Below, in pieces: positions 1,825-27,989 of a stretch of DNA of 64,000 nt (position 1 is its first letter; every line of letters begins with the position of its first letter). Where the stretch lies: assembly GCA_963700635.1 (NCBI GenBank), contig CAVOYH010000004.1, positions 640,001-704,000 of the forward strand, given 5' to 3'. Under the pieces are notes generated by a model. That model made no database searches, was not told the DNA's origin, and was given only the letters and a program-made list of their open reading frames with translations. Made by a program: the position numbers and the translations under genes. The stretch comes from an uncultured Bacteroidota bacterium. GTDB taxonomy: Bacteria; Bacteroidota; Ignavibacteria; UBA10030; UBA6906.

Positions 1825-3171
1825 ATGAAAAAGTCTGACCTTAAGATTCTCGTCGTTGACGATGAACAGATCGTGCGTGAATCGCTGATGAAGTGGTTTC
1901 AGGAGGACGGGTTCCGGGTTGAGAGTGCCGCGGACGGCGCCTCAGCGCTTAAAAAAATCCAGTCCGAGCCGTGGAACCTGGTGCTTGCGGATATCAGGAT
2001 GCCGGGCATGGATGGTATGGAACTGCTGCACCGGATAAAGAAGATGAACCGGCAGATTGTTGTCATCGTGATCACGGCATTTGCAACGGTGGAGACGGCG
2101 GTGCAAGCCCTGAAAGAGGGCGCCTACGACTACATCACCAAGCCGATTGATCCGGAATATCTGAGTCATATTGTCGTCAATGCTCTCGAACAACAGCTGC
2201 TGAACTTCGAGAACCAGCGATTGAGGGACGCGGTCAGCGAATTGACAGCGGGGGTGGAGCTTATTGGCGATTGTCCTGAGATGCGCCGTGTCCTGGAACT
2301 CGTGCAGACCGTGGCACAGACAAATACGGTGGTGCTGGTGAAGGGAGAAATGGGCTCGGGAAAAGAGCTGGTTGCCCGCGCGATTCATCAGGGCAGCGCA
2401 CGGCGCTTTGCTCCTCTTGTGACCGTCAATTGCGGCGCACTTGCGGACTCCATGCTCGCCGATGAGTTGTTTGGCCATGAACAGAACGCATTTCCGGGCG
2501 CCCTGCAGATGCGCAAAGGGAAGATAGAATACGCCGAAGGCGGGACCCTGTTCCTGGATGAAGTGGTGAACCTGGACTACAAGATTCAGGGGGATCTGCT
2601 CCGCATCATCGAGTCAGAACAGATGATGCGGCTGGGCGGATCTGAACCGATCCGGACGGACTTCCGTCTTGTTTGCGCCACCAGTGCAGATCTGGAAGAG
2701 GCAGTCCGCTCGGGCAAATTCCGCGAGGATCTGTATTATAGAATCACCGTATTGGAGGTGGTCCTGCCTCCTCTACGGGCACGACGCGGTGATGTCGCAA
2801 AACTTGCACATTTTTTCCTTGTAAAATATGCCCGGGCAATGAATCGCACGATGAACGGATTCTCTCCGGACGCCATGCTTGCGCTCAAAGCATACGACTG
2901 GCCGGGCAATGTCCGTGAACTGCAAAATGTCATCGAACGGGCGATGGTGATTGCTCCGGGATCCATGATCAACAAGGAGCACCTCATCCTGCATACCGAT
3001 CTGCCGTCGCCCAGCACGGGAAAGAGGATGGACGATGTCGAACACCGCCACATCGAACAGATCCTCCGGGAGACAGGCTGGAACATAAGCCGCAGCGCGT
3101 CCATCCTGGACATCGACCGGGTTACGCTGTACCATAAAATCGAGAAGTATCAACTCAAACGCGAGATCTGA
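1825..3171 (+). CDS. NtrC/AtoC-family response regulator (receiver-AAA+-Fis HTH) with degenerate GAFTGA motif
   Basis: ILVVDD...DIRMPGMDG receiver; GEMGSGKE Walker A; LFLDEV Walker B; FREDLYYR; WPGNVREL; HTH; GGAGG RBS. Confidence 0.93.
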   Translation: MKKSDLKILVVDDEQIVRESLMKWFQEDGFRVESAADGASALKKIQSEPWNLVLADIRMPGMDGMELLHRIKKMNRQIVVIVITAFATVETAVQALKEGAYDYITKPIDPEYLSHIVVNALEQQLLNFENQRLRDAVSELTAGVELIGDCPEMRRVLELVQTVAQTNTVVLVKGEMGSGKELVARAIHQGSARRFAPLVTVNCGALADSMLADELFGHEQNAFPGALQMRKGKIEYAEGGTLFLDEVVNLDYKIQGDLLRIIESEQMMRLGGSEPIRTDFRLVCATSADLEEAVRSGKFREDLYYRITVLEVVLPPLRARRGDVAKLAHFFLVKYARAMNRTMNGFSPDAMLALKAYDWPGNVRELQNVIERAMVIAPGSMINKEHLILHTDLPSPSTGKRMDDVEHRHIEQILRETGWNISRSASILDIDRVTLYHKIEKYQLKREI

Positions 3172-3288: not shown

Positions 3289-4686
3289 ATGCCACAAACC
3301 CAGTATGACATCGTGATTGTGGGCGGGGGACCGGGTGGATACACTGCCGCGATCCGGGCAGCCCAGCTCGGGATGCACGCAGCCATCGTCGAGCGCGATC
3401 GGCTCGGTGGAGTGTGCCTGAATTGGGGGTGTATCCCGACCAAGGCCCTGCTCCGAAACGCTGAGGTCCTCTCCCTTTTCCAGCATGCCGATGAGTGGGG
3501 TATCTCATTCGAGAACCTCCGAGTTGACTTCCCGCGTGTCATCAAACGCAGCAGGGGGATAGCCGACCGCATCTCCAAAGGGGTGGAGTTCCTCATGAAG
3601 AAGAACACCATCACGGTCATCCCTGGCGTGGCCCGGCTCCTCTCCGCCGATACCCTTGAGATCCGTGCCGAGGGAAAAACAACATCGACGGTGAAGGCGA
3701 AACACATCATCCTCGCCCCCGGTGCCCGGCCCAGACCGCTTCCCAACGTACCCATAGACCGTAAACAGATTCTTACAAGCACGGAAGCGATGACCTTGCC
3801 CTCGCTTCCTTCCTCCATGATCATCATCGGCGCCGGCGCCATCGGCGTCGAATTTGCCTCCCTGTACAATACGTTCGGCACCCGCGTCACTATCGTAGAA
3901 ATGATGCCTTCCGTCCTCCCGATGGAAGACAGTGAACTCACGAAAATTCTTGCTTCAAGCTTTACGAAACGGGGCATGGAACTTCTGACAGAAACCAGGG
4001 TTGAAAGCGCTCAGACCGATGAAAAGGGCGTGACGGTTCAGGTTCAGACTCCAGGCGGCGGGCGTGCGCTCTCGGCCGATGTTGCCCTCGTCGCAATAGG
4101 TGTCCAGGGAAATGTTGAGAACCTCGGACTGGAAACGCTCGGTGTCAGGACTGAACGGTCACATATTGTCGTGGACAAACAGTACCGCACGAGCGTGCCC
4201 GGCGTCTATGCGATCGGCGATGTTATCGGACCACCGTGGCTCGCACATGTTGCCGCAGCGGAAGGAATCAGCTGCGTGGAAGGGATTGCCGGGCGGGAAA
4301 CCGCCGGGGTCGATTATTCGAATGTTCCGGGGTGTACATACTGTACGCCACAGCTCGCCAGTGTCGGTTTTACCGAAGATGTGGCGAAGGCAGAAGGATA
4401 TGAAGTGAAGATAGGGCGCTTCCCCTATCGTCCGCTCGGCAAGGCCATGGCCATTGGTGAAACTGAAGGTATGGTGAAGCTGGTCTTTGATGCCCGGTAC
4501 GGTGAACTTCTGGGTGCGCACATTCTCGGCGCCGATGCGACAGAGCTTATAGCGGAAGCGGTGCTGGCCAGACGCATGGAGGCGACCGGGCCTGATATCT
4601 ACCGGACGATTCACGCACATCCCACACTCAGCGAAGCAATTATGGAAGCAGCGGCGGCGGCCTATGGTGAAGCAATCAGTATCTGA
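3289..4686 (+). CDS. lpdA: Dihydrolipoyl dehydrogenase (E3)
   Basis: GGGPGG, GGVCLNWGCIP redox-active disulfide, GAGAIG, HPTLSE. Confidence 0.97.
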   Translation: MPQTQYDIVIVGGGPGGYTAAIRAAQLGMHAAIVERDRLGGVCLNWGCIPTKALLRNAEVLSLFQHADEWGISFENLRVDFPRVIKRSRGIADRISKGVEFLMKKNTITVIPGVARLLSADTLEIRAEGKTTSTVKAKHIILAPGARPRPLPNVPIDRKQILTSTEAMTLPSLPSSMIIIGAGAIGVEFASLYNTFGTRVTIVEMMPSVLPMEDSELTKILASSFTKRGMELLTETRVESAQTDEKGVTVQVQTPGGGRALSADVALVAIGVQGNVENLGLETLGVRTERSHIVVDKQYRTSVPGVYAIGDVIGPPWLAHVAAAEGISCVEGIAGRETAGVDYSNVPGCTYCTPQLASVGFTEDVAKAEGYEVKIGRFPYRPLGKAMAIGETEGMVKLVFDARYGELLGAHILGADATELIAEAVLARRMEATGPDIYRTIHAHPTLSEAIMEAAAAAYGEAISI

Positions 4687-21327: not shown

Positions 21328-23268
21328 TCATGGTTGCCGGGTGAGCACCAATTCCTGCTGATCGCGTACGCGCGCGGAATCAAGGAATTGCCGGAAGGCC
21401 GGATAACGCGGGGGGGGGATGTCTGCTCCGGAGATGGAATAGCCGCTCGTATACTCGAGAACGTTTCCGCGGGTGCGCCATCGCGTGTGCCATGTTCCAA
21501 AATCGGAGTGAAGGGAGTCCTGCCCCTCCGGCACAACGGATGTCCACCCGTCAGGTATGTGTAGCGTGAGCTGAAGGTCGGACCTTGATCCAAATCGAAA
21601 GCGTACCGGATGGGTTCGTGAGGCAGCGCGGAAATAATCGGAGAGGGAGCTCCCGACGATGTCACCCGGCCTGAGGATCATCGTGGAGGCCCTTCGCGTT
21701 GCGAACGCCGCGGAGCGAAAGAGATAGGAGACCATCAGGGAGTCCGTCTTCGGTTCTATCCCGGCCATGGTGAATGTATCCACCATGGCCACCGGCGTGC
21801 GGCGTGAAAGGTAATTCTCAAGCCATTCGCGACGGCCGGCGTGGTTTGCCGACCGGAACTCATGCCGGAGTTCTGTGGCGACCGCGCCTGTGAGTCTATT
21901 TGCGCCGGCGACGGTTGCAGCACCATGCTCATCCAGGGTGGCGGTCCAGCGTACCTGCAGGCTGTTTGATCCGGTGGAATCCAACGGAGTCACCAACGCC
22001 GCCGGGTCACCGCGTGGGGATGCGCACACAACGGAACGACCCTGATCGTACCATGGAAGTGTTGAGAACCGGCAGGCTTTTTCGGTGGCGTCCATCCAGA
22101 TGCCGCCCGGAACCACGTCCGGCGCAAAGGCGATAAGGTGATTAAACTGTAACGGTGAGGGGAGGGTGGTGTCGGGACGGCCATTCTGATGTGTGCTTAT
22201 CAGGACGGGGAGCACCCGGATGTCTGCATGGCGCGCCAGTGCACAGAGAACAACCACCATATCCTTACAGTCACCGTATCTTTTCGCCACTACGTCTTCC
22301 GCATCATGGGGCTGATACCCGCCAACGCCTATTTCAACAGCTATGTAGCGAACATGGTCGCGGACCCATTCGAACACCACCTTCAGTTTCTCTGCGGGGG
22401 TGTCGTGGCCGCGCGTGAGAGAATCGGCGAGGGCCCGAACCAACGATCCGCCTTTCATGCGGGGCGCTGCAATTTCGTGGTACCACGTACTGACATCAAT
22501 CCAGGTGGCGAATCCAACGGGTGAAAGGGCGAGGCGTGCAAGCACTTCCTGGGTGGGTGGCATGCCGAATTCCGGATTCAGCGGGGGGACGTCGGAGGTC
22601 TCCCAGACATGTCGTGACTTAAAACCGGCAGGAGCGGAGGTAACGGTCGGCTGGACGTCGCGCCCGTAGGTCCGGAAGAGAATGTCCCATTCGCCCGGCT
22701 TCACCAGGGTGAAGCGGGACAGGTTCACGGGAACCTCGTCCTGAAAGTTCCACCCATGCCAGAGTCCCCGGTTCTGGATCCTGATCCGGTACCGGTATTC
22801 GATGATCGATCCGTCCTCGATCGCCGGCAGCGTGAAGATCCGGGCCCGCTGGTCGGAGAAGAATACAAAATTCGGATACAGACTGACGTCATAGATATCC
22901 TGCGCTTGAAGCTCCACCGACTGACCTGACGGCGTGATCGTGCGGGCCTCAAGGTCGCTGACAAGGCTCGATGCGCCATACGGGATCATTACGTTGGCGT
23001 ACCGGTGTCCGCGGGGATTAAAAATTTTGACGATCCGGTGCCGGTCGAAGACGCTGAATCCAAGCTCCCCGCCGCCAAAAACTTCCATCGATCCTTCGTC
23101 AAGTACGACCATCGCCCCGGCGTCGGGTGCTTCCGGCGGGGGCTTGAGGGAGTGAAGTGTTACAAGAGGAGGCGTGGTCGTGCTATCCCACGCTGACGGG
23201 CCGCCGCACGCCAGGAATACTATTGCCATTACACCGACGCCCACACTCCATCGAAAGCCGATAGACAT
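21328..23268 (-). CDS. DUF3857 + transglutaminase-like domain lipoprotein
   Basis: LAC lipobox; GSIIEYRY; VRYIA...GDCKD, FNH, MDAT (Cys-His-Asp triad). Confidence 0.85.
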   Translation of the reverse strand: MSIGFRWSVGVGVMAIVFLACGGPSAWDSTTTPPLVTLHSLKPPPEAPDAGAMVVLDEGSMEVFGGGELGFSVFDRHRIVKIFNPRGHRYANVMIPYGASSLVSDLEARTITPSGQSVELQAQDIYDVSLYPNFVFFSDQRARIFTLPAIEDGSIIEYRYRIRIQNRGLWHGWNFQDEVPVNLSRFTLVKPGEWDILFRTYGRDVQPTVTSAPAGFKSRHVWETSDVPPLNPEFGMPPTQEVLARLALSPVGFATWIDVSTWYHEIAAPRMKGGSLVRALADSLTRGHDTPAEKLKVVFEWVRDHVRYIAVEIGVGGYQPHDAEDVVAKRYGDCKDMVVVLCALARHADIRVLPVLISTHQNGRPDTTLPSPLQFNHLIAFAPDVVPGGIWMDATEKACRFSTLPWYDQGRSVVCASPRGDPAALVTPLDSTGSNSLQVRWTATLDEHGAATVAGANRLTGAVATELRHEFRSANHAGRREWLENYLSRRTPVAMVDTFTMAGIEPKTDSLMVSYLFRSAAFATRRASTMILRPGDIVGSSLSDYFRAASRTHPVRFRFGSRSDLQLTLHIPDGWTSVVPEGQDSLHSDFGTWHTRWRTRGNVLEYTSGYSISGADIPPPRYPAFRQFLDSARVRDQQELVLTRQP

Positions 23269-23349
23269 ACATGCTCCGTTTCGTACATTCAGAAGATACA
23301 TTCCCCGGGGAAGAAATAAAAGTGTATGAGTGCGGCAAGCTCCTGATTC

Positions 23350-23395
23350 TTGCATTTGTCCCCGTTTCGTGTTACGTTTATGAAAAACGTGCTAC
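23350..23395 (+). promoter_or_regulatory. nikR promoter (TTGCAT-N17-TACGTT) overlapped by a candidate NikR operator GTGTTAC-N13-GTGCTAC
   Basis: Operator 23369-23395 ends 1 nt before the nikR ATG; -10 at 23373-23378. Confidence 0.7.
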
Positions 23396-23396
23396 C

Positions 23397-23819
23397 ATGA
23401 CAACCGAGGCACTTACCCGGTTCGGCGTTTCCATCGCGGCCGATCTTATCAAGAAGTTCGATCATTACATTTCCCGTGCTGGCTACAGGACGAGGTCGGA
23501 GGCCATCCGTGACCTCATCCGGGCCCGACTGGTGGACGAGGGAGCGCAGGACGCAGATGCGCTGGCGACCGGCGTTTTGTCGCTGGTGTACGACCACCAT
23601 AGGCGTGAGTTGGAAGACCATCTTACCGACCTCCAGCATGATCATCACGAACTGATCATCGCCACCACCCATGTCCATCTGGATCATCACAACTGTCTGG
23701 AAGTGGTGCTGCTGAAGGGGACCGTTGGGAAGATCCGGGATATCGGAGCGGCTCTGGCCAGCTTCAAAGGAGTGAAGTTTAGTAGTCTCAACCTGGTCAC
23801 GACACGTGAACTTACCTGA
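23397..23819 (+). CDS. nikR: Nickel-responsive regulator
   Basis: RFGVSI...RSEAIRDLIR ribbon-helix-helix; YDHH, QH, HVHLDHHNCLE Ni site. Confidence 0.95.
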   Translation: MTTEALTRFGVSIAADLIKKFDHYISRAGYRTRSEAIRDLIRARLVDEGAQDADALATGVLSLVYDHHRRELEDHLTDLQHDHHELIIATTHVHLDHHNCLEVVLLKGTVGKIRDIGAALASFKGVKFSSLNLVTTRELT

Positions 23820-23836
23820 CCGGGGGGGGGGCGCCT

Positions 23837-24382
23837 GTGAAGATACAGTTTCCGGTTCGGGGCGGCGGATTAACCGGACGTGAACTTGCGTTCGGGGCTT
23901 TGTTCGGTGCAGCGGCTCTTGTGTTCCCGTTTTTTTTCCATGTGCTCCACCTTGGCCATGTGTTCATGCCGATGTATATTCCACTCATGGCTCTCCCGTT
24001 TTTTGTCCGGCCCCGTGTGGCATTGCTGGTCGCGATACTTGTGCCGATCCTGTCGGGGCTTCTGACTGGCATGCCCCCGTTCTTCCCTCCGGTCGCGCCG
24101 GTGATGGCTATCGAGGTGGGATGCATGGCCTTTCTTCTCGGCTTCCTGCGGAACCGCTGGCCGGAAGTGCGGGTACTATTCCATCTTGTTCCCGTGTTAC
24201 TGCTGGGGAGAATCCTGAACCCTTCACTTCTCTATGTATCCTCGCTCTGGCTGGAACTGCCCGCCGGGTTCCTGGCGGGAATTTCATTTATCGCCGGGTG
24301 GCCGGGTGTTTTCCTGATTCTCGTTGTGTTGCCGCGAATAGCACGTTTGCACACGAGCGTGAGGGAGGTTCATGAACACTGA
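23837..24382 (+). CDS. ECF transporter S (substrate-binding) component, not NikM/CbiM type
   Basis: About 6 TM helices; FMPMYIP...P.LS.LLTGMPP..P..P.MA.E pattern; upstream of T and A components. Confidence 0.75.
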   Translation: MKIQFPVRGGGLTGRELAFGALFGAAALVFPFFFHVLHLGHVFMPMYIPLMALPFFVRPRVALLVAILVPILSGLLTGMPPFFPPVAPVMAIEVGCMAFLLGFLRNRWPEVRVLFHLVPVLLLGRILNPSLLYVSSLWLELPAGFLAGISFIAGWPGVFLILVVLPRIARLHTSVREVHEH

Positions 24383-24983
24383 ACATTCACGTCGGGAATA
24401 TTTTGAAGAACTCTCTGAGCGGTGGGACGGGTTCACTGACGGTGACCGTGTGAAAAGGACGTTAAAAAGTGTCCTGTCTGATCTCCCGATTGCTCCCGCC
24501 GAGCATATCGTCGATCTCGGTTGCGGAACAGGAAATCTCACTTCCGTTCTGATGGATATCCTCGGGCCTGCAGGAACCGTGACGGCGATTGACTATTGTG
24601 AATCGATGATCGAAGTTGCGCGTGCCAAGATCGGCGATGAGCGTGTGCGATGGCTTGTGGCTGACGCTGTATGGCTTCCCCTGGACGAGAGCAGTGTGGA
24701 TCGTGTAGTCTGTTTCAGCGCCTGGCCGCATTTTCCCGACCCGGCTGCCGTCACACGCGAGCTCTCCCGTGTGCTGGGGCCGGGAGGCATGCTCCATATT
24801 GTGCATATTGACTCGCGTGATAGAATTAATGCCATTCACGGAGGTGTGGGTGGCGCTATCGGCCGGGATCTCCTGCCCCCCGCTCATGAACTTGCCGGAT
24901 TGTTGACAGACCTCGGGTTTGCCGTGTATGAAGTCATTGATACCGGGGCAGAGTACAGGATAGGAGCGGAAAGGGTGGCATGA
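24372..24983 (+). CDS. Class I SAM-dependent methyltransferase
   Basis: VDLGCGTG, AID...MI, RVL.PGG. Confidence 0.9.
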   Translation: MNTEHSRREYFEELSERWDGFTDGDRVKRTLKSVLSDLPIAPAEHIVDLGCGTGNLTSVLMDILGPAGTVTAIDYCESMIEVARAKIGDERVRWLVADAVWLPLDESSVDRVVCFSAWPHFPDPAAVTRELSRVLGPGGMLHIVHIDSRDRINAIHGGVGGAIGRDLLPPAHELAGLLTDLGFAVYEVIDTGAEYRIGAERVA

Positions 24984-25648
24984 GAGGGGATCACAGGAAT
25001 CAGCCGCAACCGTTTGTCCGGCTCATCGGTGCTGGCATCCTTCTTTGCGGATGTCTGTGCGCCGACCATAAGACAGCGGGCGGCATCGTGGCGCTCCCGG
25101 CAGTGGCGATATTGAGTGTTGTTCTTAATCAGATCGGGGTCCGAGCGGTGGTGAAACTGATCCTGGCCGGAGGGATCTTCTATGCTCCGATGGTCTTCCT
25201 CGCATCGCCAGGGATCGCCATCAAAGGACTCTCAGCCACGGTTGTCGGCTTGGCGACGTTCACTTCCCTGGGATCCCAGGCACTCCATGATGGAATACTC
25301 CGATTGCCACTCCCCACAGTTGTCAGATTACTCGTTCTGCAGATGGTGCATCAGACCGCAGTCCTTCGGCGGGAGACGCTGTGTATACACCAAGCTCTCG
25401 TCGTCCGGGGTGGTGTGCATGGAATACGGGGCATATGGGAGTTTGGAAAAGCTCTTCCCCTGGTCTGGGTCCCGCGTGTGGTGTTCCGCGCGGAACGGGT
25501 AGGCATGGCGATGGAGATGCGGGAGTATGGAGCCATCCTCCCAACTTTGCCGGCGGTCTCCTGGAGGGGCCGCGACATCGCCCTGCTGGTTTGCACTTCC
25601 GGGATCGCCATGGCTGCTGTATATCTTTCCGGGTTTGTAGCGGGATGA
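24980..25648 (+). CDS. ECF transporter T component (CbiQ/EcfT-like, divergent)
   Basis: Hydrophobic; ALVVRG and RAERVGMAMEMREY coupling-helix motifs. Confidence 0.7.
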   Translation: MRGDHRNQPQPFVRLIGAGILLCGCLCADHKTAGGIVALPAVAILSVVLNQIGVRAVVKLILAGGIFYAPMVFLASPGIAIKGLSATVVGLATFTSLGSQALHDGILRLPLPTVVRLLVLQMVHQTAVLRRETLCIHQALVVRGGVHGIRGIWEFGKALPLVWVPRVVFRAERVGMAMEMREYGAILPTLPAVSWRGRDIALLVCTSGIAMAAVYLSGFVAG

Positions 25649-26331
25649 AGGACAACAAGGTAATGCTGCACTTCGAGAATGTTACCGTTCGCCATCATGG
25701 AAGCCGGTCTGATGCTGTTCGGAATTGTTCCCTGGGTATCAACGCAGGTGAGCACGTTGCACTGCTAGGTCTGAACGGGTCAGGAAAAACCAGCGTCCTG
25801 ATGGCGGCGGCCGGGCTGCTTCCGTATGAAGGTACAATCCACGTCGACGGCATCAGGCTGAGGGATGATTCCCTGGGCGCGGTTCGCCGGAAGCTGGGGG
25901 TTCTGTTTTCCACGCCGGAAGATCAGTTGTTGTTTCCGAGAGTGGCGGACGATGTGGCATTCAGTCTGATGCGGCAGGGGGTGGATCATGGTGAAGCACA
26001 ACGGCGGTCCGAACAGATCCTCATCGCGATGGGTATCGGAGAACTCAAGGATGCCGCGCCGTATGAACTTTCCCATGGTCAAAAGATGCGTGTGGCGCTG
26101 GCGGGCGCACTCGTCCATGAACCGGGATTACTTCTTCTCGACGAACCTTCAAGCGCGCTCGACCCGCCCGGAAAGCGTGCCCTGTCCGCCCTTCTGGACT
26201 CGTACTCCTCAACGATGCTCATCGCGACCCATGACCTCGCGTTCGCTGAGGAATGCTGTACACGGTACATTTTGCTGGATGCGGGTAGGGTCGCCAGGGA
26301 TACGGCCCGGATGGAAGAGATAACGCTGTGA
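25645..26331 (+). CDS. ECF transporter ATPase (CbiO/EcfA-like)
   Basis: GLNGSGKT, PEDQL...V.DDVAF, LSHGQ, LLLLDEP, ATHD. Confidence 0.9.
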   Translation: MKDNKVMLHFENVTVRHHGSRSDAVRNCSLGINAGEHVALLGLNGSGKTSVLMAAAGLLPYEGTIHVDGIRLRDDSLGAVRRKLGVLFSTPEDQLLFPRVADDVAFSLMRQGVDHGEAQRRSEQILIAMGIGELKDAAPYELSHGQKMRVALAGALVHEPGLLLLDEPSSALDPPGKRALSALLDSYSSTMLIATHDLAFAEECCTRYILLDAGRVARDTARMEEITL

Positions 26332-26348: not shown

Positions 26349-27989
26349 CTACCTGCACACCTGCTTAAACACCCGCAGGTAGTTCTCTCCGAGGATCTTA
26401 TGCACGTCGGAGATGCTGTACCCGCGCCTCAGAAGTGCGGCGGTCAGGTTCGGCATTTTTGACACGTCTTCCAATCCCACCGGCACTGTCTCGATACCGT
26501 CATAGTCCGATCCGATCGCCACATAGTCAACGCCCACACGGTTCTTGATGTAGTCGATATGCCTTACGACAGTGTCAATGTTTACGCCGCCGCGCGAGGA
26601 GAGAAAGGGTGGATAAAAGACAACACCAATCACGCCGCCGCGCCCTGCGATGCTGTCGATCTGGACGTCGGTGAGGTTGCGGTAGTGATTGTTGAGCGCC
26701 CGGACTCCGGAGTGTGACGCGATGATAGGGTTTTTTGTTGTTGCCAGTATATCCGTTATCGTCCGGATGCCCGTATGGGACACATCAATGATCATGCCGA
26801 GGGTATCCATCGTCCTGATCACCTGCCTCCCAAAATCAGAAAGTCCAACCGTTGCAGACCGGCTATCCTGGGCAGAGACCGCCCAGGGGAGGCTGTTGTT
26901 CCAGGTGATTGTCAGATAGCGGGCGCCCAGGTCATAGAATGTTTTGAGCTTTGTGATGTCGTTCTCGATGGCATGCCCGCCTTCCACCGCCAGCACGCCC
27001 GCGAGTTTGCCGGAGGCGTGCACCTGCATCACTTCATCATAGGTCCGTGCCTGAGCCAGTGCCGACGGGTTCTGCCTGATCTGACTGTTGAAGGTATCGA
27101 CCATTGCGATCGTGTAGGAATAATACGGATGTGCAACGGAGTCGCGCCAGTCGGTCCACAGAGCGAACATCTGGGCATCCATGCCACCCTCGCGGAAGCG
27201 CGGAAGGTCGGATTGGTCCGTGGTGTGCCGGATTCCGAGCTGGTATCCGACCACCGCCTTTTCCATAACGTCGTTGTGGAGATCAAACAGGAATGCATGT
27301 TCATGCACGGTCTCGAGCTGCACGTCAAACACCGCGCTGCCCTGAAGGAGCGTGTGCACCGTATCCGGCATGTAGAGCAGTTTTGAAACGACGATGGAAA
27401 ATGCTGTCGCGGTTCCCCTCGCAAGAGAAGTCTCCCTTGCACGGCGACCGCTCGTGAGAACATTACCCAGTCCGCCGCCCCCGTGTCCGTCGAGTTGAAC
27501 CATCTTCCGGATGATACGTGTCTCGCCGAAGCTGATGGAGTAGAACAGCACTCCCGCCGCACCTTTGCTGGTCCAGTCCACCGAATGATCCCCTCCCTCA
27601 AGCACAACGGTTTTCTCATCCAAACGCTGGCCGATTGACGTGTACACAGCGAGAGTCACCGTTCCCGGGCCCGGTGTGGAAAACATAATGTGTGTTGAGG
27701 GATTAAAGGGGTTTGGATAGTTCTGTTCGACGGAAAAACTCCCCGGGACTTCCGGCTCCCCATCGACTGCCGTCAGGGCGAACGTGTACGACCAGAGGCC
27801 GAGCGCGTTTGTAAAGACCGAATACCGTTCGGCAGGGGCGGTCTCGTTGATGATCACGACCGCGGCGGAATCGATCGGCGTGAGGGATGACTTGTGTTTC
27901 ACCGAGCCGGAGAGAGTGATCGTCTCTGCCGATCCGGCAAGAGGAACAAGGAGTCCGAGCCCGATGCTCAAGGCGATACGTGTATTCAT
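26349..27989 (-). CDS. Secreted M19 (membrane dipeptidase) protein with an N-terminal T9SS-CTD-like domain
   Basis: Signal peptide; QNYPNPFNPST; DLHND, VEGG, YLTITWN, IDVSH, ASHS, GSDYDG. Confidence 0.88.
   Translation of the reverse strand: MNTRIALSIGLGLLVPLAGSAETITLSGSVKHKSSLTPIDSAAVVIINETAPAERYSVFTNALGLWSYTFALTAVDGEPEVPGSFSVEQNYPNPFNPSTHIMFSTPGPGTVTLAVYTSIGQRLDEKTVVLEGGDHSVDWTSKGAAGVLFYSISFGETRIIRKMVQLDGHGGGGLGNVLTSGRRARETSLARGTATAFSIVVSKLLYMPDTVHTLLQGSAVFDVQLETVHEHAFLFDLHNDVMEKAVVGYQLGIRHTTDQSDLPRFREGGMDAQMFALWTDWRDSVAHPYYSYTIAMVDTFNSQIRQNPSALAQARTYDEVMQVHASGKLAGVLAVEGGHAIENDITKLKTFYDLGARYLTITWNNSLPWAVSAQDSRSATVGLSDFGRQVIRTMDTLGMIIDVSHTGIRTITDILATTKNPIIASHSGVRALNNHYRNLTDVQIDSIAGRGGVIGVVFYPPFLSSRGGVNIDTVVRHIDYIKNRVGVDYVAIGSDYDGIETVPVGLEDVSKMPNLTAALLRRGYSISDVHKILGENYLRVFKQVCR

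Follow-up and report, generated by a model that had tools for sequence, protein, structure and literature searches.

The described systems that the present locus most resembles are the energy-coupling factor (ECF) transporters NikMNQO and CbiMNQO, which are regulated by NikR or by B12. They are dedicated group I ECF transporters with T and A components in the operon, and they provide nickel to hydrogenase-bearing anaerobes. In NikM and CbiM, an N-terminal Met-His forms the metal-binding motif. In deltaproteobacteria such systems lie under NikR boxes of the GTGTTAC type (PMC545781). Here we describe an operon of the same general kind from an uncultured Bacteroidota bacterium of the Ignavibacteria (assembly GCA_963700635.1, contig CAVOYH010000004.1). 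It lies at 23350-26331 of the 64-kb stretch that was analysed (positions 640,001 to 704,000 of the contig, forward strand; hereafter, the window) and consists only of nikR, the genes for the S, T and A components of an ECF transporter, and a gene for a class I S-adenosylmethionine (SAM)-dependent methyltransferase between S and T. Unlike NikM and CbiM, its S component has no match to the CbiM model, no Met-His motif and no NikN, NikL or NikK partner. It has six helices only, its fold is nearer to those of RibU, FolT and PanT (Z 14-17), and its gene is paired with that of an obligatory methyltransferase, in most cases with a TonB-dependent receptor gene as well.

Other known systems share single features with this one. 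Cargo is modified after import in the acetylation of deferri-ferrichrome in Escherichia coli and in the SAM-dependent anaerobic breakdown of haem by ChuW. There an imported metal-ligand complex is altered in the cytoplasm, freeing the metal or disarming the ligand, as we propose here, but the enzymes are separate and soluble (an acetyltransferase and a radical-SAM enzyme), neither fused to nor embedded in a transporter. Where the inner-membrane partner of nickel receptors of the FrpB4/FecA3 type is known, it is NikABCDE, NixA, NikZOppBCDE or a Cnt permease, and an ECF module with a methyltransferase is not known in this role. Through the opine metallophores staphylopine and pseudopaline (Cnt systems), nickel, zinc or cobalt is taken up as a chelate, as may be the case here. 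However, biosynthesis genes (for CntL and CntM) are part of Cnt operons, whereas the window cassette has none. The receptor of the Pseudomonas opine system is the TonB-dependent CntO, and the NikR-regulated TonB-dependent nickel receptors comprise FrpB4 and FecA3 of Helicobacter and the predicted Bll6948, Daro_3944 and others (PMC11247825). The FrpB4/FecA3 type provides NikR-controlled, TonB-energised passage of nickel through the outer membrane; most relatives of our cassette likewise have a receptor upstream of S, though the window genome has lost it. In Staphylococcus lugdunensis, haem is scavenged by the ECF transporter LhaSTA (PMC7299338), which offers a precedent for the piracy of metal complexes through an S component, being an ECF route to an organically bound metal under a metal regulator. 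It differs in the metal and in its Gram-positive host without an outer-membrane receptor, and it is not known to include a methyltransferase; the resemblance is one of concept.

We suggest that the operon serves NikR-repressed nickel acquisition through a new type of ECF transporter, whose S-linked methyltransferase would methylate the cargo, likely the ligand of a nickel complex. On the sequence evidence we consider this probable, though by a modest degree. We infer all three of its parts, namely that the cargo contains nickel, that the nickel travels as a complex and not as the free ion, and what the methyltransferase acts on. ECF transporters and NikR control are known; we regard as new the family to which S belongs, the methyltransferase as an obligatory partner, and the combination of receptor and ECF module. 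In the literature searched, we found no ECF cassette in which a methyltransferase is embedded or fused, or such a cassette under NikR; that search did not cover Rodionov et al. 2006 (J Bacteriol 188:317) and 2009 (J Bacteriol 191:42), which may bear on the point.

The S component and its transporter

The S component (23837-24382, forward strand as for all features of the operon; 181 residues) belongs to an ECF family without a characterised member. The classification proposed in the original prediction, against models of CbiM/NikM and of the vitamin families, gave a match to none of them. The generic ECF_trnsprt model (PF12822) alone responded, at 20.4 bits and below its cut-off of 30.7. Pfam CbiM (PF01891) and the riboflavin S model (PF07155) had no match, and no NCBIfam family was found at E <= 0.01. 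A profile search of the PDB at E <= 10 returned no S components, only a spurious phage protein. The ESM Atlas labels are generic for both S ('ECF transporter S component') and the methyltransferase ('methyltransferase type 11'). As predicted, the N-terminal motif of NikM and CbiM is absent, the protein starting with MKIQFPVRGG; nor does the operon contain accessory genes of the NikN/CbiN or NikK/NikL kind.

The resemblance to vitamin-type S components that had been proposed is evident in the fold. The AlphaFold model (predicted local distance difference test, pLDDT, 88.6) has six helices and aligns with vitamin-type structures at Z scores of 12-17 (VIA-align). The best of these is RibU (Z 16.9, root-mean-square deviation 2.6 A over 157 aligned residues), and PanT (15.1), FolT (14.2), BioY (14.0) and ThiT (13.9) are among the others. 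Scores are lower for the cobalamin-specific BtuM (10.9), NikM (4m5c, 10.6) and CbiM (5x3x, 9.0). The top 11 VIA-align matches are S components throughout. In Foldseek, the first match that is not an S component has rank 23 (the ranks are gapped); 18 of the 19 rows listed before it are ECF S components or complexes, with template-modelling scores of up to 0.72, and the remaining row, 4huq_S, is titled 'a transporter' only.

The family carries the signature FH..G..F(M/L)PM..P, TGMPP..PP, M..E and GWPG. Its invariant residues are F34-H35, G40, F43-M44-P45-M46-Y47, G78-M79-P80-P81, M90, E93 and M97. They group in the first loop, the third loop and helix 4, and both loops are presumably external, given the usual topology of S components. 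The His/Met loop FHVLHLGHVFMPM, to which the original prediction had drawn attention, corresponds to residues 34-46, and of its His/Met set only H35, M44 and M46 are invariant there.

EcfT and CbiQ proteins have two conserved Ala-x-x-x-Arg-Gly coupling motifs. The T component (24980-25648; 222 residues) is a divergent protein that resembles them, scoring below the cut-offs of both CbiQ (17.2 bits, cut-off 25) and TIGR02454 (22.6 bits, cut-off 111.8). Across 16 aligned members its family shows Q..HQT..L..E, A-x-x-x-R-G and A-M-x-x-R-G/E, with A139, R143, M178 and R181 invariant; the second motif of the window protein is AMEMRE rather than one ending in RG. We found no other CbiQ-type T component in the host genome. 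The A component (25645-26331) is an ABC ATPase of 228 residues when read from the ATG at 25645; an alternative GTG start at 25381 gives a longer frame that overlaps T and is unnecessary. It matches ABC_tran at 100 bits, and its best NCBIfam models are the ECF ATPases TIGR04520 (154 bits, cut-off 315) and cbiO TIGR01166 (142 bits), both below cut-off. Gene calls and matches to hidden Markov models (HMMs) agree with the predicted order of nikR, S, methyltransferase, T and A. The last four genes overlap (S and methyltransferase by 11 nt, methyltransferase and T by 4 nt, T and A by 4 nt), and nikR and S are 17 nt apart.

The methyltransferase and the outer-membrane receptor

The methyltransferase (24372-24983; 203 residues) matches Methyltransf_11 at 80.9 bits, and its class I fold is modelled with a pLDDT of 93.8. 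In 32 sequences, the SAM-binding residues D48, G50, G52 and G54 of the D-x-G-C-G-T-G motif are invariant, as is D74. Further invariant positions are W118-P119-H120, H145, N153 and H156; H142 is nearly so, and R149 is among the residues conserved in the family. The retention of all SAM-binding motifs, together with a confidently modelled class I fold, argues that this is an active enzyme. Its neighbours in structure (Foldseek E down to 5.5e-16) and in sequence are generic small-molecule methyltransferases. None of the named subfamilies (UbiE/MenG, BioC, ArsM, DVU_1556, CpaM, Tam) reaches its NCBIfam cut-off, the best scores being 61.2 bits (cut-off 235), 57.3 (184.95), 54.1 (510), 55.6 (155) and 46.1 (180).

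The cassette is widespread. Homologues of S number at least 253 in a large protein collection, none of them with a functional name, and a profile search of 1.84 billion cluster representatives gave 1322 matches at E <= 0.001, 517 at <= 1e-10 and 39 at <= 1e-30. We confirmed 358 loci, with one genome per species, and examined the best 80 of these with flanks of up to 5 kb. The 80 loci come from metagenome-assembled genomes labelled Myxococcota, Verrucomicrobiota, Kiritimatiellia, Lentisphaerae, Bacteroidota/Ignavibacteria, Aminicenantes, Planctomycetota, Fibrobacterota and others. The synteny check proposed for nikR, S and the methyltransferase came out in favour of conservation. In 75 of the 80 loci the methyltransferase gene is the next one after S. 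Of the 61 loci that extend at least 2.6 kb downstream, 59 have the whole order S, methyltransferase, T, A, the exceptions being L040 and L077. nikR itself is present in the fetched flanks of 26 of the 80. The gap between S and methyltransferase has a median of -4 nt (10 nt or less in 63 of 73), and so does that between T and A (10 nt or less in 65 of 67), the latter as in the window.

The deviating loci are of several kinds. L040 has no methyltransferase between S and T; the class I methyltransferase that it encodes after A is unrelated (24% identity) and lacks WPH. L043 also lacks the gene between S and T, and its locus sequence ends early. At L066 and L077, S has no adjoining methyltransferase, T or A.

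S and the methyltransferase are also joined physically. They form a single open reading frame (ORF) in four of the 80 loci. Among the long S homologues (16 clusters of 371-415 residues), 15 have S at the N-terminus, a short linker and the methyltransferase at the C-terminus. The same kind of fusion recurs in more distant relatives of S (30-40% identity), whose Methyltransf_11 domains still have the (W/F/Y)PH and H...N..H motifs. In solved S components the C-terminus is cytoplasmic; presumably this also holds for the present protein, which shares their fold. Because the S C-terminus would then be cytoplasmic, the methyltransferase would lie at the inner face of the transporter. A predicted complex of S and methyltransferase scored 0.00 in a run without controls, which is evidence neither way. 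The distant S proteins P0261, P0263, P0281, P0159, P0160 and P0176 (30-40% identity, with FH..G..FLPM / TGMPP) are fused to TM1506/DUF1893, FmdE or an ABC ATPase. From such fusions, proteins of the S family seem to become joined readily to cytoplasmic domains. We considered whether the methyltransferase could be a nickel-dependent 'client' enzyme fed by the transporter, and rejected this, since repression of a nickel enzyme by Ni-NikR makes little sense.

A TonB-dependent receptor belonging to one BLAST cluster is encoded at 62 of the 80 loci, nearly always directly upstream of S, which fits the import of a bulky or scarce cargo. Its nearest models are receptors for B12 and haem, all far below their cut-offs, and the copies in the order to which the window genome belongs are 53-61% identical to one another. 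In the relative G004 the receptor is intact (L002:2-1468) and the order is receptor, S, methyltransferase, T, A. In G003 it is reduced to its C-terminal 353 residues (L011:3895-4962). In the window genome itself (G000) and in G001 there is no receptor; nikR abuts S (23819-23837 in the window) and the cassette is intact. No orthologue of the operon-type receptor was found elsewhere in G000, where the best tblastn match is 26-27% identical. Within one genus, then, the receptor has been lost in steps.

Additional genes were observed at some of the loci. In those of the Myxococcota type, the receptor gene is preceded, at a distance of about 0.5-1.1 kb, by two ORFs for lipoprotein-like products (L020, L025, L029, L035, L045, L048-L050, L063, L071, L078 and others; for example, L025:1862-2443 and 2534-3028). 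One of them, U6, has about 170-190 residues and the motif NHQGPCPPEGV; the other, U5, has about 160-180 residues, SFNGC.W and a C-terminal PGPYGH. Pfam and NCBIfam gave no match for either of them. They may be surface proteins that capture the cargo. At L031, two cobalamin riboswitches (2805-2976 and 3499-3684, reverse strand) stand before a divergent BtuB-like receptor that adjoins the S-methyltransferase-T-A genes, the cassette itself being without a riboswitch. The receptor-less cassettes of L040 (668-4978) and L058 (587-4882) follow genes for NifU-like, cysteine desulfurase/pyridoxal phosphate-type, radical SAM and ARMT1-like proteins, and the same stretch holds Mrp/NBP35-type ParA, NifX-like and metallo-beta-lactamase-fold genes.

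Predicted NikR control and nickel demand

The nikR gene (23397-23819) encodes a nickel-responsive ribbon-helix-helix repressor of 140 residues. It matches RHH_1 (27.8 bits), NikR_C (106 bits) and the NCBIfam equivalog NF003381 (165 bits, cut-off 105), and it is the only NikR_C match in the host genome. Its sequence contains HVHLDHHNC, which we take to correspond to the His-x-His...Cys nickel site of E. coli NikR.

The candidate NikR operator (23369-23395) has the layout originally described, with GTGTTAC at 23369-23375, 13 nt, GTGCTAC at 23389-23395 and a single nucleotide before the nikR ATG at 23397. It had been called an operator of the deltaproteobacterial type. This holds for the type of heptamer and the spacing but not for the orientation. 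Both heptamers of the window site point the same way, around a palindromic spacer (CGTTT-ATGAA-AAACG), while the published operator is the inverted repeat GTGTTAC-N13/14-GTAACAC (PMC545781, Table 4). The same report describes a variant of the NikR signal with opposite orientation in Desulfotalea (PMC545781). Each NikR heptamer is in itself pseudo-palindromic (GT...AC).

The inverted form alone, with up to three mismatches, matches twice in the window, which is the level of chance. The window site is the sole direct-type site with at most one mismatch in the 4.2 Mb genome, though about one per orientation class is expected by chance. The weight of this operator thus lies in its position and its conservation in relatives. 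Both heptamers stand in the same order before nikR in L006/L030, L011, L060 and L088, where the flanks diverge and where they abut the nikR start if the upstream stretch compared reaches it; in L085 their order is swapped.

We then scanned the 80 related loci (688 kb) for two heptamers in any of the four relative orientations with up to two mismatches. The scan gave 57 orientation-class matches, equal to 49 distinct sites, against 10-13 in mononucleotide shuffles. All but two of the 49 fall in the 3.3 kb that precede S, which amount to 34% of the sequence scanned. By best orientation, 19 are inverted, 17 direct, 8 everted and 5 reverse-direct, which shows the direct repeat to be a regular variant of the predicted operator. 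Such a site is carried by 44 of the 80 loci. At L022, L033, L057, L072, L080 and L090, none of which has nikR in its fetched flanks, a box without a mismatch stands some 2-3 kb ahead of S, at the operon start in the gene maps. L044, L064 and L075 likewise have a perfect box upstream, and their nikR is downstream of the cassette. These boxes at operon heads, found also where the flanks lack nikR, back the predicted NikR control of the operon, and they give good comparative evidence that the cassette is in the NikR regulon across many phyla. A scan of the whole window genome for further NikR boxes gave matches with up to two mismatches at about chance level, none tied to an obvious nickel gene.

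The original prediction had also placed the operator over a sigma-70 promoter. A simple scan with the E. coli-type sigma-70 consensus found none there, and the promoter-like sequence TTGCAT-17 nt-TACGTT(T) at 23350-23379 has 6 of 12 consensus positions. Nevertheless, TTGC and TAnnTTT stand at the same distance in the relatives L006/L030, L011 and L060. This conserved pattern resembles the Bacteroidota -33/-7 promoter type. Its downstream element (TACGTT) overlaps the left heptamer, which is a repressor geometry.

The host has a clear use for nickel. Its genome (4.2 Mb, 97% complete) has a single NikR and encodes two [NiFe] hydrogenases, whose large subunits carry the motifs RxCGxC and DPCxxC. 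No match to CbiM/NikM, NicO (NiCoT) or HupE/UreJ came up in it. We compared 41 related genomes, of which 11 have S, 11 have CbiM, two have both and 21 have neither. The S-bearing relatives all have a [NiFe] hydrogenase (11/11) and NikR (11/11), and in ten of them NikR is within about 2.6 kb of S. Among the relatives without S, NikR occurs in 5 of 30. No nicotianamine-synthase-like gene (PF03059) was found in the host genome and none of the cassette genes is biosynthetic; thus, a chelate cargo, if there is one, would come from other organisms or through an unrecognised route.

The genes on either side of the operon are on the opposite strand, so the five genes form one unit. Upstream is a protein of 675 residues with DUF3857 and a transglutaminase core (21328-23355, reverse strand). 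Downstream is an M19 membrane dipeptidase (26349-27989, reverse strand), which has, near its N-terminus, a match to the type A sorting-domain model of the type IX secretion system (residues 91-164, 23.6 bits). No riboswitch precedes the cassette in the window or in eight further loci (Rfam, gathering thresholds); besides the L031 matches, a single tRNA was the only hit.

Proposed function and significance

We propose the following mechanism. When nickel is plentiful, Ni-NikR would sit on both heptamers, over the downstream promoter element and the transcript start, and nikR and the four transport genes would be off. When nickel is scarce, a single message with translational coupling would be made from the operon. 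S would capture the substrate, T would be the scaffold and a dimer of A would hydrolyse ATP; together they would assemble into a dedicated ECF-type ABC importer, with the methyltransferase as a fourth, obligatory subunit at the cytoplasmic C-terminus of S. The methyltransferase would methylate the incoming cargo, in all likelihood on the organic ligand that accompanies the nickel, and this could free the nickel, trap the cargo or make the chelator harmless. In most other lineages a dedicated TonB-dependent receptor would move the same cargo through the outer membrane; it has been lost in the window genome and one congener, and persists as a remnant in another. We favour complexed nickel as the cargo because of the usual TonB-dependent receptor with the lipoprotein-like ORFs, the vitamin-type S fold with few classical nickel ligands, and the strictly conserved catalytic methyltransferase. 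The original prediction had put forward a nickel chelate or tetrapyrrole that would be methylated on import, or else a new nickel-binding class of S; the natural fusions of S with the methyltransferase and the receptor usually encoded upstream lend this suggestion further support.

Several observations weigh against this proposal. The S pocket has one invariant His (H35), one acidic residue (E93, invariant in one alignment and present in at least 90% of a further one) and several Met and Pro. As most of this set stays unchanged in distant relatives whose fusion partner is a different enzyme, the residues may be structural and say little on nickel, and they are not necessarily nickel ligands. 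The methyltransferase falls in no functional subfamily and its nearest structures are generic, so that neither points to a substrate. The window operator has three mismatches to the published inverted consensus (one when read as a direct repeat), and 36 of the 80 loci have no box at up to two mismatches. NikR binding and repression are what we infer, the binding from motif statistics. The co-occurrence of S and NikR is suggestive only, because the 41 genomes are kin rather than independent samples and 21 of them have neither S nor CbiM. Many of these 21 have [NiFe] hydrogenases, so other nickel routes exist and the argument from complementarity is weak. Finally, the window lineage does without the receptor, which leaves room for a free ion or a small complex as the cargo.

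The main rival is in fact the import of free Ni(II) by a new, NikM-independent metal S component, the His-rich methyltransferase then being a gate or acceptor for nickel in the cytoplasm, or regulatory. The receptor-less window genome allows for this, which we consider less likely than a complex but not remote. The expected substrate pocket of the methyltransferase is indeed rich in His (H120, H145 and H156 invariant, H142 nearly so, beside the invariant N153), S has a conserved His/Met/Glu set in loops 1 and 3 and helix 4, and the host has no other recognised nickel importer. The cassettes of G000 and G001, which lack the receptor, and of G003, which keeps a remnant, are intact. However, the SAM-binding motifs of the methyltransferase are invariant across phyla, which argues for catalysis. 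S has a single invariant His, lacks the N-terminal amine/His site of NikM and CbiM, and is nearer in fold to the vitamin type (Z 12-17) than to NikM (10.6) or CbiM (9.0). Moreover, most lineages add a TonB-dependent receptor, and loci of the Myxococcota type also two lipoprotein-like ORFs; an envelope set of this kind is more typical of the uptake of a chelate or cofactor.

The vitamin-type fold and the weak ECF_trnsprt match would fit the import of a nickel-free vitamin or cofactor precursor with salvage methylation, the link to NikR being incidental. The weak, sub-threshold similarity of the methyltransferase to the UbiE/MenG, BioC and CpaM models, and of the receptor to B12 and haem receptors, far below cut-off, point the same way. 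We regard this as improbable. NikR boxes stand at operon heads in 44 of the 80 loci from several phyla, nikR adjoins the cassette in 10 of the 11 S-bearing relatives, no riboswitch precedes the cassette in the window and eight loci, and S matches no family-specific vitamin HMM. Less probable still, and hardly to be expected, is a device for nickel export or detoxification switched on by NikR. NikR can activate genes in Helicobacter, and a direct-repeat operator is unusual. But an operator over a promoter element and transcript start has the geometry of a repressor, the host requires nickel and has no other recognised importer, and the known ECF systems and TonB-dependent receptors are importers.

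If import of a nickel complex with methylation of its ligand is the correct reading, a bolder version can be put forward tentatively, as a possibility rather than an expectation. The cassette could be the first ECF transporter to couple import to chemical modification, that is, group translocation by methylation. The S-tethered enzyme would act where the cargo leaves the transporter, and methylation would both release the nickel and disarm the ligand. Its cargo could be a foreign nickelophore or an F430-type nickel tetrapyrrole in methanogenic surroundings, which would amount to nickel piracy under NikR control.

Nickel supply is limiting for hydrogenases, CO dehydrogenase and urease in anaerobes, and many genomes that encode these enzymes lack a recognised nickel importer, the host genome among them. 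A NikR-linked cassette shared by hundreds of genomes across many phyla would go some way to closing this gap, and ECF transporters would gain a new family of S components. That NikR half-sites occur in four orientations before one family of operons is relevant to the way in which NikR reads DNA with its two DNA-binding domains. In addition, the constant pairing of S with the methyltransferase, and their occasional fusion, suggest a transporter that chemically alters its cargo on entry, for which the literature searched offers no ECF precedent. If methylation-coupled import is true, these cassettes would represent a widespread, NikR-controlled nickel-piracy pathway of anaerobes, in an S family generally wired to enzymes and domains such as the methyltransferase, TM1506 and FmdE.

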